Source of the DNA: a virus | Lineage: Duplodnaviria > Caudoviricetes | Direction: 5' to 3' (one strand) | IMG/VR virus record: IMGVR_UViG_3300028886_001681 | Span: 64,001-128,000 of that record | DNA length: 64,000 nucleotides | Shown here: one piece after another, positions 1 through 63,027 of the stretch | How positions within the stretch are numbered: the stretch's first letter is position 1 | Layout: every line of letters starts with the position of its first letter | Translations under genes and position numbers: made by a program | Notes under the pieces: model-generated | What the model was told of the DNA's origin: nothing | Database searches by the model: none | What the model saw: the letters and a program-made list of their open reading frames with translations, nothing else

Positions 1-406
1 ATTTGTAGTCGGATTCTAGTCCGTCAAGTTTCGCCAATTTTTTCTCTATTGAATTTTTGGACTTGTCGAACGAAGCCTTCGCTTTCTTGGTTTTGTTTTT
101 CGTGGATTCGTCAATTTTTTCGTTTTGCTCTTTGGTTAGCGTTTTCTTATGGTTGAGTTTAATCGTGACCACTTTAGCGCAATCCATGTATTGATTCTTG
201 AACTGTTTGTCGGTCAGATTGCTCCAATCTCTCTTTTGAATTTCTTCCGCAAGCAAAGATGTGCCGAAATAAGTTCTGAATGTTTTTGCTGTTGCGAACT
301 CATATTTATTTTTTATTGTTTCCAATAACGAATCGTCAATTTCAAATTTATCGACCGATAGCAAGTTCTTCAAGCGTTTTGGTAATTTTGTCATAATTAT
401 AAGCAT
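1..406 (-). CDS. DNA topoisomerase IB, C-terminal part (runs off window start; absent from ORF track)
   Basis: SD TAAGGAGG (420-413), 6 nt, then ATG at 406. The open frame reads MLIIMTKLPKRLKNLL...KYEFATAKTFRTYFGTS...VTIKLNHKKT then a Lys-rich coiled coil. This matches the eukaryotic Topo IB motifs TAKVFRTY and ILCNHQR followed by the linker. Confidence 0.85.
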   Translation of the reverse strand, partial: MLIIMTKLPKRLKNLLSVDKFEIDDSLLETIKNKYEFATAKTFRTYFGTSLLAEEIQKRDWSNLTDKQFKNQYMDCAKVVTIKLNHKKTLTKEQNEKIDESTKNKTKKAKASFDKSKNSIEKKLAKLDGLESDYK

Positions 407-1292
407 ATTTGCCCTCCTTAATATTATTATATACTGTTTGTGTGTATTCGTCAAAATAATTTTTATAAACTTTTATAAAATCATTCCAAGCAATATCAAT
501 GTTAAATTTATTATATAAAAATTGTTGTAATGCTTTATTTGATTTTATTTTTAATTTTACTTTTTCATTTTTAGCGATGTTTTTTTCACCCTTCATGGAA
601 TCACTTCGTATTTTTTTACTTTCTTCAGTGATTCCATTTTTGCGTTTTTCAGAATAAATTTTTTTATCTCCATCGGATAAAGAATCCCAAAACATTTTAT
701 TTTTTTCAGATTTATTTTTCTTTTCTTTTTCATTCCAATGTTTCCCTTTCATTGGATTGATATAATTTTTTTGTTTTGCTAATTTTTTATGAGTTTTGCT
801 TGATTTTTCTTTCAATTCATTTGTCCACATTTCTTTAACTTTTTGTTTATGAAAATCTTTAACTTTTTCAAAGCCATCTCTTTGATGTTGTCTTAATGTA
901 TCGAATTCTTCTTTTGATAAAGATTTATACCATGATTTTGTAGATTGAGATTTTTTTAATTTTTGTTCATCAGTTATATATAAATTATAATTAGATTCCC
1001 CACCTTCGGTCATGTTGTATCCAAAATTTAAATCATTGGAATGAAAAAGTTTAATTAATCTTTTTTCCCAATAATTTAAGTCATAAGTTTCAATTAATAT
1101 TTCAAAAGAAAAATTTTTAACGCCATATTTTCTTATTGCTTTATGAATATAACAATCATCTTTTGAATTTATATGAGAAATCCATCTATTGTGAATATCA
1201 ATTGATTGACCGATATAAACTTTATGATTTATGAGATTTTCAATTTTATAAATTCCACTAATATGATTATTATATATTTTATGTCTACTCAT
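348..1292 (-). CDS. GIY-YIG homing endonuclease (free-standing, Seg-like)
   Basis: SGIYKIENLINHKVYIGQS...R...E...GYN core followed by a basic NUMOD-like tail; very AT-rich. Confidence 0.9.
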   Translation of the reverse strand: MSRHKIYNNHISGIYKIENLINHKVYIGQSIDIHNRWISHINSKDDCYIHKAIRKYGVKNFSFEILIETYDLNYWEKRLIKLFHSNDLNFGYNMTEGGESNYNLYITDEQKLKKSQSTKSWYKSLSKEEFDTLRQHQRDGFEKVKDFHKQKVKEMWTNELKEKSSKTHKKLAKQKNYINPMKGKHWNEKEKKNKSEKNKMFWDSLSDGDKKIYSEKRKNGITEESKKIRSDSMKGEKNIAKNEKVKLKIKSNKALQQFLYNKFNIDIAWNDFIKVYKNYFDEYTQTVYNNIKEGKYAYNYDKITKTLEELAIGR

Positions 1293-2469
1293 TTAAATAA
1301 TCCATTACATTATATTTAACAATCAAACCTATCGCTAATTTAATGTCATTTTCATTTTTAGATAACAATAGTTCGTCAATTTTTATTTTTAAGCATACAT
1401 TATTTAAAAATTCGTTCACATCGTTAGACGATATTTTGTCGAACGCTCTGTCTTTTGGGCTTTTGTCTTTCAAGCATTTTTTCAACGAATCAAAAGCGTC
1501 CTCATCAACTTTCATCGTGTTGTCCATTACCATTGAGTCTTTACCCAAGAAATGCAAACGGACTTTTTTGCTTTCCAACAAAATGATGTTCTCAACTTTA
1601 AGGGTGGACGCTCCGACGACCCCATTGTTCCGTTTGTCCTCGTTGCCCGCTCGTATACCAAATTTAGAGATTATGTAGGCACAACAACCAATTTGCCGTT
1701 TCTTGGCGTTGTCGGACAAGTAAGCGTCTTTTATCGCCTTGGTGACCTTTCTGATGTTTTGTTGCAGAAGCCTAGCATTCTCGAATTTTTCCTCGTCGGA
1801 ATCCGCCTTGAATAAAGACTTGTTGGAAAACCAAATCGCCTTTTGAATCGTGACGCTAGGATTTCCAATCAACCGCTCGGTGTAGGTGGCAATTGAAGAG
1901 GTGTCCTTGAACGACACATCCTTCCATTTGTGAGTTCCGTAATCGCACGGAAACGGATAAGACGAATTGATTGACACATCTTCAGGCATTACATCTTCCA
2001 CAACAAATCCGCTCCATTCGCAAGCACCGCGCCCTATGAATATTCGGCTAGACTCGATTAATGAGTTTCCTATCTCAACCTTCTCTCCGTCAACCAAAGC
2101 GTAGCCGTAGGTTTCCTTCCATTTTTTGTTTTCTTCCGCTATTTCCTTTCTATGTTCTTTATTGTAAAGTTTCTTTTCTTCCGCGTATTTTTCTTTAATC
2201 GCTTTCATTCTTGACAGAACCGTTTCGAAGTCGGACGGAAATTTCAATTCCTTCTGTTCCTTCGTCAGTTCCGTTTTTAATGACTTATAAAAATTCTTTT
2301 GGTAGACATTTTCGCTTTTGTATTTGTCCGCCAAAGTAGACCACATGAAGAGCCATTTCACCGCTCGATATGACAATCTCATTTTATTCTCGTTGGAATA
2401 ATATTCGTCAATGTAGGGTAATTCCTTGGGGAATTTCACGCACCCTTCAATTAATTTGAGTTCTTTCAT
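1285..2469 (-). CDS. DNA topoisomerase IB, N-terminal part (eukaryote-type core)
   Basis: Motifs YGYALVDGEKVEIGN..IE...FIGRG, D.EKFENAR.L, GIRAGNE, VGASTLKVENI and FLGKDS; ends before the TAKxFRTY motif. Confidence 0.9.
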   Translation of the reverse strand: MKELKLIEGCVKFPKELPYIDEYYSNENKMRLSYRAVKWLFMWSTLADKYKSENVYQKNFYKSLKTELTKEQKELKFPSDFETVLSRMKAIKEKYAEEKKLYNKEHRKEIAEENKKWKETYGYALVDGEKVEIGNSLIESSRIFIGRGACEWSGFVVEDVMPEDVSINSSYPFPCDYGTHKWKDVSFKDTSSIATYTERLIGNPSVTIQKAIWFSNKSLFKADSDEEKFENARLLQQNIRKVTKAIKDAYLSDNAKKRQIGCCAYIISKFGIRAGNEDKRNNGVVGASTLKVENIILLESKKVRLHFLGKDSMVMDNTMKVDEDAFDSLKKCLKDKSPKDRAFDKISSNDVNEFLNNVCLKIKIDELLLSKNENDIKLAIGLIVKYNVMDYLNE

Positions 2470-2478
2470 ATGTTTTCC

Positions 2479-2853
2479 TTAAAATTGATTTCCGTTTTCG
2501 TCCAAGAAGTTGGACATGAAGTAAACGACAGGCACCAAATGAACCGAGGCCACGCTCTTCCATTCCGACAACTCGACATTCCAACAGTCCGCGAACCGCA
2601 AGCCTCTGAACACCCACTTCGTTCCGTTGGCGTCTATGGCGAAGACCTCTCCGTTCGACGAGTATAGCCTAGAGAACAACCTCTGAACCAACTCTTCCTT
2701 GGGGCACTCGTCATGGTAACGTTTGTGCTCGATTCTGTCCTTTCCGTTGAAAATCACTCTGTCCAAGTAGTCCGTTCCGCTCTTTATCAAGTTTCCGCAC
2801 TTTAGGCACACATAGTCCTTCTTGGCAGTCCTTACGATGATGGAATCGCTCAT
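2479..2853 (-). CDS. hypothetical protein with N-terminal Zn-ribbon-like motif
   Basis: RTAKKDYVCLKCG...HDEC; SD GAGGGA and a sigma70 promoter upstream. Confidence 0.6.
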   Translation of the reverse strand: MSDSIIVRTAKKDYVCLKCGNLIKSGTDYLDRVIFNGKDRIEHKRYHDECPKEELVQRLFSRLYSSNGEVFAIDANGTKWVFRGLRFADCWNVELSEWKSVASVHLVPVVYFMSNFLDENGNQF

Positions 2854-2889: not shown

Positions 2890-2918
2890 ATTATAGCATG
2901 TATTGCTCGCTTTGTCAA
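2890..2918 (-). promoter_or_regulatory. consensus sigma70 promoter
   Basis: TTGACA-17 nt-TATAAT on the minus strand. Confidence 0.85.
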
Positions 2919-3232: not shown

Positions 3233-3760
3233 GGTTGGAAACATCGGTTAGTTTATCACGATGGTTTTTATAGAGAATATCAATCGGCAAGAGATGAAAT
3301 AAAATCCTATTTATCTCCATTGCTTCAAGATTTAGCAATAGAACAAAGTTGCCGCATAGATGAATTAAAACTTTATGTGATTGGCTTTTCTTTGGGTGGT
3401 TCAATTGCACCTATCGCTATGGAAGATTTTTATGAAGTTTATGCTATAAAACCAACATCGATTGCTTTTGAAGGTGCGAATCCGTGTGAAAGTTTACATA
3501 CTAGAAATTATCTGATGAATTGTATGAATCTTGATGAATCTATAGCATTTGTATATTCAAACGATTTTGTTCCAAGATGTGCCCCATTCTTCGGTAAAAA
3601 ATTAAAAGATATTATTTATTATTTAGACGACCATAAATGTAAGTTTCCGTTTTATTTTATAAAGAAGATAATCTCATTCATAAAAGATACAGAGTATTAT
3701 CATACTAGTGTGGATGAGGGTATAAGAAAATATATGCCTACAGAATGGGGATTAAATTAA
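3233..3760 (+). pseudogene. 5'-truncated class 3 lipase-like alpha/beta hydrolase
   Basis: GFSLGGS nucleophile elbow and D.VPR. The frame stays open upstream of the annotated TTG through VYHDGF back to an in-frame TAG (3230-3232), with no start codon in that extension. Confidence 0.6.
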
Positions 3761-6023: not shown

Positions 6024-7205
6024 TTAGTCCGCATATTCAAATCTATATCCAAAATATGTTTTTCTTTTCAAATCACCTCTACATATATTACGAATTGCAT
6101 CTTTTATACTTCTATCTTTAGAATTTGAAATAGTATTTTTTCTTAAATATTCCAACAAATCTTCCATTATGAAAATTCCTACAAATTCATTATGATAAAA
6201 AACTTTAATTTTATGTGCTTTTGCTCTATGTGTTTTGGTTGTTTGTTCGATTCTTAATTTATTTGCTAATTCTTTATCGTAAAAACACAATCCGTATTCC
6301 GTTCCAATATTCAAATATTTTTCAACTGTACTTCTATCTAAATCAAATATTTTAGATATATTTAATGTACTTTTATTTTCATCTTTTGCGTTTTTATAAT
6401 ATTCACAAACTTTAATTAAGAGGTTACTCAACGCCCATTTTCCACAATCTTCCCAATTAACTTTAGATAAATCAAGTATTTCGGATAATTGTGATTTCAA
6501 AATACTTTCTTTTATAAAATCAACAGATGATACATCACAATTTATTCTTATCACTTCAATGTCATGTTCTTTTGCTAATATATCTTTATATCTATCTCGT
6601 TCTAATCCTTCAACATCTTTTTCTTTAGAATTAAATTTCAATTTACCATGACCAATCCCACCATCCATCTCAATTATGTATTTTTGTTCATTAAATTCAA
6701 AATAGCAATCGTATTTATACGGTTTTATCCACGAAGGATGATATTCATATTCTAAATTATTTACATCAAAATGTTTCATAAACGCTCGAAGAAATTTATT
6801 AGGATAACTTAACGAATCGTTAGGGCAATTATAACATTTATATTTAATCACATATCTACCTTGTTCATATTTTTCATCTCCACAGACAGGACATTTGAAC
6901 AAAAATTTATGTCTTGTTCCATAACTGTATGTTTTTGCCAAATCTTTATTTACAATTAAATACATTAAATTAGAATAAGTACTATATAAATCATTCACAC
7001 CTTGAGTTACTTTAAGATTAGTACGAGGATAATTAAGTCTGACAATTTCATATTCTTCTTCATCGTAATTTCTTAAACAATCACCACAAAAAGTATATTG
7101 CCAATTTTTACAAGATTCTGTATTACATATAAAATCTTTATGACAATAATCACACTCACAAACAAATCTGTTTTTATCGTTTCTTAATTGATGTTTAAAT
7201 CCCAT
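6024..7205 (-). CDS. free-standing Zn-finger plus Vsr/DUF559-like endonuclease (putative homing endonuclease)
   Basis: CxxC motifs; YD.YF...IIEMDG..H...D..KD.LA....I.VIRI; HTH-like C-terminus. Confidence 0.7.
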   Translation of the reverse strand: MGFKHQLRNDKNRFVCECDYCHKDFICNTESCKNWQYTFCGDCLRNYDEEEYEIVRLNYPRTNLKVTQGVNDLYSTYSNLMYLIVNKDLAKTYSYGTRHKFLFKCPVCGDEKYEQGRYVIKYKCYNCPNDSLSYPNKFLRAFMKHFDVNNLEYEYHPSWIKPYKYDCYFEFNEQKYIIEMDGGIGHGKLKFNSKEKDVEGLERDRYKDILAKEHDIEVIRINCDVSSVDFIKESILKSQLSEILDLSKVNWEDCGKWALSNLLIKVCEYYKNAKDENKSTLNISKIFDLDRSTVEKYLNIGTEYGLCFYDKELANKLRIEQTTKTHRAKAHKIKVFYHNEFVGIFIMEDLLEYLRKNTISNSKDRSIKDAIRNICRGDLKRKTYFGYRFEYAD

Positions 7206-34087: not shown

Positions 34088-34302
34088 ATTATTCCTCACA
34101 TATAAAAAATCTTTGATGTTCAAATTATAAAACATCAGAGATTTTATGTCAAGTAATTTTGTAAAATATTAAGTTAATTTTGCAAGAAACAATTAAAATT
34201 AAAAACTGTTACTCAAAAAAATATTAACTATTATAACTATATAAATAAAGGTTGGAATGTGACCTCCAACCTTAAAAATATCAAACAATAGGTAAGTATT
34301 GC

Positions 34303-57119: not shown

Positions 57120-58742
57120 ATGAAAGAAACTGAAAGTAAGAAAAAGGAATTGTACTCGCTCAAGGAACTGCACAAGATGAAAGTGTATCCTACTCTCTTG
57201 GAATACCTTGGAATTGAAACTGTGAAGAAAGGCCGAGCGACATATATAACCCAAGAGTCCTTGGATAAAGCGTTAAAATTCAAGGAGGAGAATCCTAACA
57301 CGAGAGTTTTGTTGCAAAAATTCGCCTTCATGAAAAAATACGGAGTCGAGAACCCCCAACAAGCCAAAGAAATCCGAGAAAAGACGCTCTCCACAGTCAA
57401 GGAAAGGTACGGAGTCGAGAACACTTCGCAATCCCAAGAGGTCAAGGACAAGAAGGCTGACACTCTACGAAAGCGTTACGGAGAAAATGTGTCCAACCCC
57501 ATGGATTGCGAGGAATTCGTTTTTAAAGTGAAGGAGAATTGGAAAAACAAGAGTCGAGAGGAGATGAATGCTCTGACCGAAAAGACGAAGAGGACATCGA
57601 TGCTCAAATACGGTTTCGACAACGCTATGAAAAACAAAAATGTAGCAGACAAGTCGAAAAACAATAAAAAGGAAAACAAACTCAAGGAACTTGAAAAATA
57701 CAAAGATTATGTTCCCATAAAAGAAATTTGCATGATTGTCTCAAGGTGTTATGACAGAGTCTTGGATGTAATCAAACTTTTGGGATTGGAGATTATAGAA
57801 GTCAAGGATTCCCACTTAGTGAAAAAATCCGATTTAGATAAAATCAAAAAATATTTTGAAGTTGCGTCGGATTACGCTACTTCAAACGAAGAAAAAGAGT
57901 TGTTGGAATTCATCGAAACATTAACCGACGAAAAAATTATCTCCAACGATAAATTGACGATAAATCCATACGAATTAGACATTTTCATTCCTTCAAAAAA
58001 TTTGGCGTTCGAATTTGACGGAATTTACTACCACTCCAACCAATTCAAAGACAAATTTTACCATTACGACAAAACCAAGTTGTGCGAGAAAAAAGGAATT
58101 AGATTAATTCATGTCTTTGAGGACGACTGGCGATTCAAGCGGAACATAGTGAAATCGATGATAAATGCTTCGTTGGGAATTTACGAACGGAAAATATTCG
58201 CTCGCGAATGTGAAGTCAAAAACATTTTCAATTTTGAATACCGAGATTTTATGAACGAAAACCATCTGCAAGGATACGCTTCCGCTAGTCGTTATTTAGG
58301 ATTGTATTATCGCGGAGAATTGGTTCAGTGCGTGGGAATAAAATATAACGGAATCAACAAGACTTGGGAATTGAACCGCATGGCCACTAAACTCAACAAT
58401 CAAGTCGTGGGAGGCTTTAGCAAACTATTGAAACACGCGATAGAGCGATTCAACATCAAGGAAATGACTTCCTATGTCTTCAAGTCTTGGTTCGACGGAA
58501 AATCTTACGAGGCTTGCGGATTCAAATTCGACAAGGAATGCCCTCCGACTTATTGGTATGTCGTGAATGGAATGAAAACAAACCGAATGAATTGGCAAAA
58601 GAAATTCATCAAGGAGAAATTCAACAAGGGTGAATTGAGGCATTACGACGAATTAGAAAGCGAGTTTGACAACATGGCGAAAAACGGATTCAATTGGATT
58701 TGGGATAGCGGTAAAATAAGATTAAGGTATAAATCGGAATGA
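57120..58742 (+). CDS. Hef-like putative homing endonuclease
   Basis: YGVEN repeats, ELDI....AFEFDGIYYHS, IFAR.CEV, NHLQG, VVGGFSKL, WDSG. Confidence 0.75.
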   Translation: MKETESKKKELYSLKELHKMKVYPTLLEYLGIETVKKGRATYITQESLDKALKFKEENPNTRVLLQKFAFMKKYGVENPQQAKEIREKTLSTVKERYGVENTSQSQEVKDKKADTLRKRYGENVSNPMDCEEFVFKVKENWKNKSREEMNALTEKTKRTSMLKYGFDNAMKNKNVADKSKNNKKENKLKELEKYKDYVPIKEICMIVSRCYDRVLDVIKLLGLEIIEVKDSHLVKKSDLDKIKKYFEVASDYATSNEEKELLEFIETLTDEKIISNDKLTINPYELDIFIPSKNLAFEFDGIYYHSNQFKDKFYHYDKTKLCEKKGIRLIHVFEDDWRFKRNIVKSMINASLGIYERKIFARECEVKNIFNFEYRDFMNENHLQGYASASRYLGLYYRGELVQCVGIKYNGINKTWELNRMATKLNNQVVGGFSKLLKHAIERFNIKEMTSYVFKSWFDGKSYEACGFKFDKECPPTYWYVVNGMKTNRMNWQKKFIKEKFNKGELRHYDELESEFDNMAKNGFNWIWDSGKIRLRYKSE

Positions 58743-61467: not shown

Positions 61468-63027
61468 TTAATCCGATTCATATCTTACTTTAATCGTTCC
61501 GCAATCATATATCCTATAATATCCCAATTTTTCCATATTTCGCTCTTCAGTCAAAGATTCGTCGAATTCCTTTGGAAACTTTTTAGCGATATTCTTCTTG
61601 GTGAAATTCATTCTATAAAACCTTTCAAACTTTTTTGTATAATAATAATTCGGTTTGTTTGCCGATATTTTTTTAAATCCGCTAGACAAATAGCCATCGC
61701 CGTTGAACAACCGTCTATCGACATAAGAAATGCAATCTTTGCCATAATGTTTCATCAATTTACTAAATCCGCCGACAACTTGAGTGTTTAATTTCGTGAC
61801 CATTCTAATTAACTCGTTTTCATTTTTAGTAAATCTCGACTTTCCGAAACCAACGCATTGAACCAATTCTCCTTCATAAAACAATCCCAATCTTTCAGAA
61901 GAATTACACTCTCCTTGAATATGATTTTCGTCACAGAAGTTTCTAAATTCACGGTCGCCAATTTCTTTCACCTCGCATTTTCTAGCGAATATTTTCCGCT
62001 CGTAAATTCCCAATGACGAACTTATTATCGATTTGACGATATTTTGCTTGCATTTCCATTCGTCCTCAAATACATGAATCAATCTTATTCCTTTTTTCTC
62101 ACACATGATTGTTTTGTCGAGATGATAATTTTTATTTTTCTGATGTTCCGTGGAGTGCCAATATAATCCGTCAAATTCTATGGCGACCTTTTTATTAGGA
62201 ATATAAACATCCAATTCTTTCGGAAAAATCGTTTTTCTGTCGTTTTCTATAATTTCGTCACAATAAATGGATTTTACAAATTTTACCAAATCTCGCTCGT
62301 CTTTTGAACTGTGCGAATAATTTTTACCGATTTTATCCAATTGTTCATTTATTAAAGAAATGTCGCGATTTTTAATATATGGAACATTTTCAAACATAAG
62401 CAATTTTACATTCGTTTGTTCCAAACAATAATTCAATGTGCTCGCGGAATGCTTTACGCTCGGTTCAAATATTTCCGAAAACATGGAACAATCGTTTTCT
62501 TCGCAAAATTTTTCGGAAGCGTTTTTAAATCTTTCCTTCCTTCGCCTTCCCATTTCCACATTATAATCTTCTATGCTCTTGTATCTTTCGACGATTGTTT
62601 CCTTCGCCTTGTCGGAATTTATGAAATCGCAAGTTCCGTAGCGCTTCATGTTGGTTTTGTTTCTTTTCTCAATCCGTTCCGCAGAATTTGCCTTGCTCGT
62701 CTCCGACAATTTCTTTCTAATTTCTTCAAGTTGGGATTTGTTTTCCACTCCGTATTTTAATAACGAGATTGCCTTTGATTTCTCGGCTTTGGACAAGTTC
62801 GCGTATTTCACGATTTTATCCGCCGTTTCTTGGGAGTACATTGCGACTTCTTTTTTCGCCTTGGGATGGTAGGCTTTCTTCGATTCCAAAAAAGCGGAGT
62901 ATTTCCTTATGGACTTAATTTGCGAGCGAGGAATGTTGTTATCGCCTAATATTTCATTGAGAGTTTCATAGTTTTGAGAAATTAAATTGTCATATTTTTC
63001 CGATTTATTGTTTTCCATAAGAAGCAC
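61468..63027 (-). CDS. Hef-like putative homing endonuclease (paralogue of 57120-58742)
   Basis: Same motif set: AIEFDGLYWHS, IFARKCEV, VVGGFSKL, YDCG. Confidence 0.75.
   Translation of the reverse strand: MLLMENNKSEKYDNLISQNYETLNEILGDNNIPRSQIKSIRKYSAFLESKKAYHPKAKKEVAMYSQETADKIVKYANLSKAEKSKAISLLKYGVENKSQLEEIRKKLSETSKANSAERIEKRNKTNMKRYGTCDFINSDKAKETIVERYKSIEDYNVEMGRRRKERFKNASEKFCEENDCSMFSEIFEPSVKHSASTLNYCLEQTNVKLLMFENVPYIKNRDISLINEQLDKIGKNYSHSSKDERDLVKFVKSIYCDEIIENDRKTIFPKELDVYIPNKKVAIEFDGLYWHSTEHQKNKNYHLDKTIMCEKKGIRLIHVFEDEWKCKQNIVKSIISSSLGIYERKIFARKCEVKEIGDREFRNFCDENHIQGECNSSERLGLFYEGELVQCVGFGKSRFTKNENELIRMVTKLNTQVVGGFSKLMKHYGKDCISYVDRRLFNGDGYLSSGFKKISANKPNYYYTKKFERFYRMNFTKKNIAKKFPKEFDESLTEERNMEKLGYYRIYDCGTIKVRYESD

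Follow-up and report, generated by a model that had tools for sequence, protein, structure and literature searches.

A TOP1-like topoisomerase IB gene of a rumen tailed phage, interrupted by a GIY-YIG endonuclease cassette and probably expressed as two proteins

Type IB DNA topoisomerases (Topo IB) are known in two forms, a long form found in eukaryotes and BAT archaea, and a short form found in bacteria and viruses (PMC2621148, PMC8748870, PMC8371274, PMC8185306). The distribution of TOP1 has been used to argue for its presence in the common ancestor of Archaea and Eukarya (PMC2621148), and for Topo IIA a viral ancestry has been proposed (PMC9752973). Here we describe a long-form Topo IB gene that is interrupted by a GIY-YIG homing endonuclease cassette. 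It lies in a stretch of 64,000 nucleotides, the whole of which is called the window in the following and which corresponds to bases 64001-128000 of the 160-kb IMG/VR virus record IMGVR_UViG_3300028886_001681; the adjoining DNA (L001) was read too. A preliminary description of the window had reported a long, eukaryote-type Topo IB at 1285-2469 and had given the long form as known from eukaryotes and some archaea, which matches the published distribution (PMC2621148, PMC8748870). No account of a long Topo IB from a tailed phage came up in our literature search, and a tblastn search against 50,697 deposited phage genomes gave no match.

Two kinds of divided genes come close to this locus. The heterodimeric TOP1 of trypanosomatids and the reconstituted human TOP1 are cut in or near the linker, and their small piece carries the Tyr domain only. 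In phages, the Aeromonas phage Aeh1 nrdA-a/mobE/nrdA-b genes and the T4 gene 39/60 topoisomerase II with mobA are reportedly genes in pieces, and are said to have been treated as such by Friedrich et al. 2007 and Bonocora et al. 2011.

Our analysis of the sequence indicates that the window encodes a long-form, TOP1-like Topo IB of a ~210-kb contractile-tailed rumen bacteriophage, with a clamp-forming cap, which the cassette would probably split into two proteins that must reassemble to give an active enzyme. The features concerned are as follows (window coordinates; lengths of proteins in amino acids, aa; ORF, open reading frame).

1-406, minus strand: beginning of the C-terminal Topo IB piece (C fragment; 240 aa counted from the ATG), which extends 316 bases past the left edge of the window (L001:1184-1906).
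284-1404, minus strand: mobile cassette of 1,121 bp, with a GC content of 22.9% against 41% in the flanking Topo IB, standing in place of 39 bp that encode GSICKDIPHLSNK.
348-1292, minus strand: GIY-YIG homing endonuclease gene, 314 aa (Pfam GIY-YIG, E-value 2.3e-7; PHROG homing endonucleases phrog_314, 7168 and 5123).
413-419, minus strand: Shine-Dalgarno sequence AAGGAGG, 6 nucleotides ahead of the C-fragment ATG, which is in frame with the rest of Topo IB.
426-454, minus strand: sigma-70-like promoter, TTGACG-17-TATAAT, matching at 11/12 positions, inside the endonuclease ORF at its 3' end, in another frame, and shortly before the C-fragment ribosome-binding site.
1285-2469, minus strand: Topo IB N fragment, 394 aa, bearing the cap (Topoisom_I_N) and the initial portion of the catalytic core, where the first Arg (IRAGNE) and the Lys (LGKDS) are located.
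2890-2918, minus strand: perfect sigma-70-like promoter, TTGACA-17-TATAAT with TG, upstream of a 124-aa ORF (2479-2853) and the N fragment.

All cap-region motifs quoted in the preliminary description (YQKNFYK, EENKKWKETYGYALVDGEKVEIGNSLIESSRIFIGRG and HKWKDV) were found in the translation of 1285-2469. Pfam searches gave a clear match to Topoisom_I_N (PF02919) over residues 24-202 of the N fragment, with an E-value of 8.5e-26 and 91.3 bits against a cut-off of 25. They also gave a match to the core family Topoisom_I (PF01028) above the curated cut-off (5.9e-33), which ends at profile position 143 of 228. Positions 2-143 of this profile lie in the N fragment and positions 140-225 in the C fragment, so that the core is complete but runs across two ORFs. 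When the N fragment was compared with the PDB (phmmer), the best match was human TOP1 (6.4e-40, residues 17-358) and the TOP1 enzymes of Leishmania and Caldiarchaeum were also among the best; Caldiarchaeum 6Z01 was matched at 4e-31, the short variola enzyme at only 5e-4. The N fragment matched none of the PHROG families.

The C fragment continues the enzyme in the expected order, with a cassette-borne N-terminal extension of 41 aa followed by TFRTY (second Arg), LNHKK (His), the linker, TNYSNP (Tyr) and Topo_C_assoc (PF14370; 5.2e-12, above the Pfam cut-off). The linker is rich in Lys and Glu and measures about 105-106 residues between His86 and Tyr193, and TNYSNP aligns to human LNYLDP, which holds the catalytic Tyr723. 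The five catalytic residues (Arg-Lys-Arg-His-Tyr) are invariant among 18 family members, and all five are present across the two pieces, Arg and Lys on the N piece and the second Arg, His and Tyr on the C piece. HMMER alignments further showed that the equivalents of human F361, G363, R364, D533, T718 and N722, which contact camptothecin, are conserved, and on the basis of these residues the phage enzyme may plausibly be sensitive to camptothecin. LNHKK and the linker that the preliminary description placed after it do exist, but they lie outside 1285-2469, in the second ORF (ATG at window position 406) past the GIY-YIG gene. The stretch 1285-2469 does contain the N-terminal cap and the start of the core, but it is only the N-terminal fragment of a long Topo IB. 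The division of the gene by a homing-endonuclease cassette does not figure in the preliminary description. With these corrections the original observation is confirmed, as the long-form Topo IB is real and far above chance: the cap, core, linker and C-terminal domain of the eukaryote-type enzyme are all present on the phage, in two ORFs.

The fold was modelled on an intact relative, 77% identical, and not on the split protein (AlphaFold2, 18-row alignment). The model has a mean predicted local distance difference test (pLDDT) score of 90.6, and in it the stretch from the His to the Tyr contains two long helices, 420-465 and 468-508. In Foldseek searches with this model human Topo70 came first (1RRJ and 1K4T), aligning over the whole length with 583 columns and a template modelling (TM) score of 0.81/0.82, as compared to ~230 columns and TM 0.27-0.31 for the short variola and Deinococcus enzymes.

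The interruption itself can be read from alleles with and without the cassette. A contig from an independent bovine-gut study (run X4) joins L001 position 1783 to position 2905 by 39 other letters, the reverse complement of which encodes GSICKDIPHLSNK, and it therefore represents the intact allele. Because this contig joins across the locus with 39 bp, the cassette is delimited to 1,121 bp (284-1404). The interrupted form was also present in contigs of another rumen study when public bovine-gut runs were aligned to the locus. Two further sequences, P0008 and L002, are intact alleles. P0008 is uninterrupted, with 197/199 and 199/199 identical residues in the two flanks, and L002 is a 218-kb viral contig with an uninterrupted gene of 568 aa that is 77% identical. 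Consistent with these limits, codons 1-355 of the N fragment (window 1405-2469) are homologous to the intact relatives, and its last 39 codons and stop (1285-1404) are derived from the cassette. The stop of the N fragment and the ATG of the endonuclease overlap in ATGAGTAG.

A second N fragment, P0007 (395 aa, still open), carries a cassette tail with 36/39 identical residues on a backbone that is 78% identical. The occurrence of this tail on such a backbone points to horizontal spread, as homing predicts. The relatives of the endonuclease that were found in IMG/VR are just 27-31% identical, and no further insertion contexts were found among them. The tail of the N fragment and the extension of the C fragment show some likeness (a direct repeat of 10 nucleotides, AAATTGACGA, and KIDELLL vs EIDDSLL), which is not significant, being equalled by 406/5000 protein shuffles and 141/2000 DNA shuffles.

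We propose that the GIY-YIG cassette entered the core at a surface loop that comes after the Lys and before the second Arg. It would terminate the upstream half with a tail of 39 aa, and the downstream half would be restarted from the cassette's own promoter, ribosome-binding site and ATG. The resulting proteins of 394 aa and 240 aa would then reassemble into one active site, to which the first would contribute Arg and Lys, and the second Arg, His and Tyr. In the AlphaFold model of the intact relative the cut site corresponds to residues 360-367, a loop joining two core helices, and such a position is tolerant of a cut. Complex prediction scored 0.73 for the two fragments and 0.56 for one control, and it was not used as evidence in either direction.

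The start signals of the downstream half were evaluated by counting. Promoter matches at 11/12 positions or better occurred 15 times in both strands of the 64-kb window (128 kb of sequence), 14 of them on the gene-rich minus strand (e.g. at 34152, 2918, 49915 and 454), and these fifteen near-perfect sigma-70-type promoters look like a genuine promoter class of the phage. AAGGAGG was found nine times in the window and was followed by an ATG in 6/9 cases. Among the AT-rich ORFs of the window, off-frame stretches without a stop over 38-41 codons are found at a frequency of 1-1.5%. We therefore read the locus as genes in pieces, with two polypeptides that would share one active site. Neither Topo IIA nor Topo IA was detected in this record (77% complete) or in its 92%-complete relative. 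This leaves Topo IB as the one topoisomerase that could be recognised, in keeping with a role as a swivel belonging to the phage itself, probably relaxing supercoils in replication and transcription.

Several points weigh against the reading of two reassembling proteins. Since the flanks hardly differ from those of the intact allele, the invasion is recent, and the absence of decay therefore says little on function. Another topoisomerase could lie in the part missing from the record, and the promoter and ribosome-binding matches are consensus matches only. In a rival explanation, which we consider unlikely, the endonuclease invasion would have killed the gene, and the two ORFs would be fresh debris without a working enzyme. 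With 99-100% identity between the flanks and intact P0008 there would have been too little time for decay to appear, and the occurrence of both intact and interrupted forms in rumen samples suggests that the gene may be dispensable. A dead gene, on the other hand, does not account for the in-frame ATG, the AAGGAGG and the 11/12 promoter that the cassette places exactly at the needed restart point, nor for the cassette tail on the 78%-identical backbone of P0007, where the 395-aa N fragment is open. It is also at odds with complementary N and C pieces in other lineages, divided at another position (P0130 with P0088 and P0091), and with the finding of no other topoisomerase in the phage or its 92%-complete relative.

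These pieces, from other lineages of the phage-type long Topo IB, are themselves candidates, which could be truncations at contig edges; taken as they stand, they would mean that the phage of the window is not alone in having a two-piece form. P0130 (306 aa) covers core positions 5-83 and ends just past STLKVENI, and P0088 and P0091 (265-266 aa) run from position 89 and begin with M..F..I.MIGKDS. Another N fragment with the same end site as that of the window, P0041 (387 aa), was not used, as it scores as a eukaryotic/giant-virus sequence and may be an exon.

The main mechanistic rival to two separately translated proteins is a group I intron carrying the endonuclease, in which splicing would restore a one-piece mRNA, for example by joining ...EFLNN to ETIKNK.... 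Group I introns of phages commonly carry GIY-YIG genes, and joins after U (AATAAT) and after G (TTATTG) would be in frame. No Rfam family matched anywhere in the window at the gathering score, and over window positions 1-2600 there was no match to Intron_gpI even at E-values up to 10; Rfam is insensitive to AT-rich, ORF-bearing phage introns, and such a blank result is weak evidence. The layout of the cassette also speaks against splicing. There are ~100 nucleotides with 23% GC before the endonuclease ORF and ~20 nucleotides after it before the candidate 3' splice site, which would leave hardly any room for a P3-P9 core outside the ORF. Moreover, the downstream promoter, the ribosome-binding site, the ATG and the two long open frames would all have to be coincidence, and we regard an intron as improbable. 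A split intein was rejected, as there was no intein or Hint match in Pfam and the junction residues EFL|NN and AK|TF do not fit the Cys/Ser expected at the N-junction and the His-Asn followed by Cys/Ser/Thr expected at the C-junction.

To place the enzyme among its relatives, 1,323 homologues were obtained from a full scan of 1.84 billion representatives, and three trees were built: a 196-row FastTree, a 79-row IQ-TREE and a careful IQ-TREE of 53 rows, for which seven short proteobacterial enzymes served as the outgroup. In all three trees the window protein fell in a clade of proteins of 490-600 aa, which includes three other viral contigs (L002, L008 and L018). A second viral group (L007, L009, L010 and L011) has PHROG-type neighbours, and the record of L009 is classed as a provirus by IMG/VR. 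The ten clusters that were looked up, eight from the window clade and two from the second viral group, all come from metagenomes only. In the 53-row tree the short and long forms were separated by a 100/100 branch, the outgroup branch having a length of ~3.9 changes per site.

The second viral group, the archaeal clade and a clade of eukaryotes and giant viruses (with turtle P0084 and Iris P0097) were united on a 100/100 branch. The archaeal sequences P0036 (Bathyarchaeota) and P0129 (Nitrososphaeraceae) formed a 100/98 clade of their own beside the eukaryotes, and the phage clade lay outside. The suggestion of an unusual lineage in the preliminary description is borne out by this clade, which is phage-only and metagenome-only and falls outside that of the archaea and eukaryotes, and the clustering with short bacterial Topo IB that would have spoken against it was not seen, a 100/100 branch standing between the two. 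These trees make a solid case that the phage enzyme is neither of the short form nor a recent capture from eukaryotes or archaea. That the gene is not truly of the phage, being recently captured from, or contamination by, a eukaryote, giant virus or archaeon, is hardly credible: its Pfam families are labelled 'eukaryotic' and giant-virus metagenome-assembled genomes (MAGs) with long forms exist (L012, L015 and L017), but the gene lies within a 160-kb contig with phage genes on either side, the same contig recurs in several rumen studies, and the protein belongs to a metagenome-only clade with other tail-sheath viral contigs, a 100/100 branch away from the group of viral V2, archaeal, eukaryotic and nucleocytoplasmic large DNA virus (NCLDV) sequences.

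When rooted with the short bacterial outgroup, each of the 200 bootstrap trees had its root within the lineages of the first phage clade, the basal branches being weak (87/80 and 89/70), and the second phage group, archaea and eukaryotes came out together, nested in a 100/100 clade. This rooting allows the tentative and rather doubtful suggestion that long-form TOP1 may be an old and widespread gene of large tailed phages, with the archaeal, eukaryotic and giant-virus enzymes descending from within the phage diversity. If true, eukaryotic TOP1 would have viral ancestry, and the scenario is now testable. The diverse phage-borne branch of the long form also alters the taxon sampling behind the argument for TOP1 in an archaeal-eukaryal ancestor (PMC2621148).

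Two other sequences in the collection deserve mention. L020 (CAIKLL010000067.1, 2,263 bp) is binned in an uncultured Rickettsiales MAG, and its long Topo IB forms a tight cluster with the giant-virus MAG sequences L012 and L013; it is probably a binning contaminant and not a bacterial long Topo IB. It was the only locus obtained from a profile search of genome contigs, and the other 400 Pseudomonadota genomes that were searched lacked a long form. L014 (IMGVR_UViG_3300031999_007842, 156 kb) has a Topo IB within the archaeal clade, and this 'viral' contig may be an archaeal virus or a fragment of an archaeal genome.

The contig is that of a tailed phage. The window encodes a tail sheath, a Dda-like helicase, an SbcC-like protein, a DNA methyltransferase and several HNH homing endonucleases, and a tail sheath is present in the records of L002 (92% complete) and L018 as well. 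A search for Terminase_6C in five viral records gave no match and was uninformative. The runs that contain the locus are bovine and goat gut metagenomes, and the sigma-70-type promoters together with the Shine-Dalgarno sites point to a host that is probably bacterial. Large HNH-type homing endonuclease genes are found at window positions 57120-58742 (plus strand), 61468-63027 (minus strand) and 6024-7205 (minus strand), with matches to phrog_3339 and phrog_559 at E-values down to 1e-112. With the GIY-YIG cassette added to these, the genome is seen to be heavily colonised by selfish nucleases.

Upstream of the N fragment, the 124-aa ORF at 2479-2853 (minus strand) has Cys pairs (CLKCG ... HDEC) and no match in Pfam or PHROG. 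It is placed between the perfect TTGACA-17-TGnTATAAT promoter and the Topo IB start, and is therefore probably co-transcribed with Topo IB; the sequence at 2890-2918 (minus strand) is likely the promoter of a unit made up of this ORF and the N fragment. An ORF of 146 aa at 3320-3760 (plus strand), which is oriented against the genes around it, weakly matches class-3 lipases (Pfam Lipase_3, 3.3e-5). In L002 three consecutive ORFs with CxxxCxxC (L002:183-3780), radical-SAM-like by eye, are found just upstream of the intact Topo IB, where the content of the window differs.

Taken together, the kind of enzyme is known, and the phage-borne branch and the cassette-split form are variants for which no description was found in the literature searched. 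Phages of this type provide a bacterial-virus source of small TOP1-like enzymes without the N-terminal extension, for work on mechanism and camptothecin. The split allele beside a nearly identical intact allele amounts to a natural test of complementation between fragments that are divided within the catalytic core.

Compared with the short bacterial and poxviral Topo IB (vaccinia, variola 2H7F, Deinococcus 2F4Q), the phage enzyme shares the chemistry of the catalytic domain. The short enzymes, however, have no Topoisom_I_N cap and no linker; they have a small N domain of ~80 aa, a Tyr only a few residues after the His and a total length of ~310-390 aa. The phage protein thus differs from them in architecture, and it is separated by the 100/100 branch from the seven short proteobacterial enzymes. 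With human TOP1 (Topo70; PDB 1K4T, 1RRJ and 1A36) it has in common the three Pfam domains, the catalytic pentad, the coiled-coil linker and the camptothecin-contact residues, whereas identity is ~25%, the long charged N-terminal extension is absent, the clade is separate and the protein is in two pieces. The archaeal long Topo IB of Thaumarchaeota/Aigarchaeota (CsTOP1, 6Z01; PMC2621148, PMC8748870) is similar in length (~540-600 aa), in lying on the prokaryote side and in having cap and linker, but the archaeal clade stands beside the eukaryotes and the phage clade outside.

In being made of two polypeptides with one active site the phage enzyme would resemble the heterodimeric TOP1 of Leishmania donovani (2B9S) and the reconstituted human TOP1 (1A31), both of which were among the sequence and fold matches. 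In the phage, unlike in these two, the insertion of a mobile cassette with an endonuclease has made the cut, which falls within core subdomain III, past the Lys but ahead of the second Arg. A parallel in organisation is with the divided genes of Aeh1 and T4, where an endonuclease gene reportedly stands between the halves of an essential DNA-metabolism gene that has uninterrupted relatives, and where the downstream half has its own translation start. At the sequence level the same three features are present here, as the endonuclease ORF lies between the two halves of Topo IB, close relatives are uninterrupted and the downstream half has start signals of its own. The differences are that the present locus combines Topo IB with a GIY-YIG endonuclease, and that its cassette brings a promoter and adds tails of 39 aa and 41 aa to the two halves.

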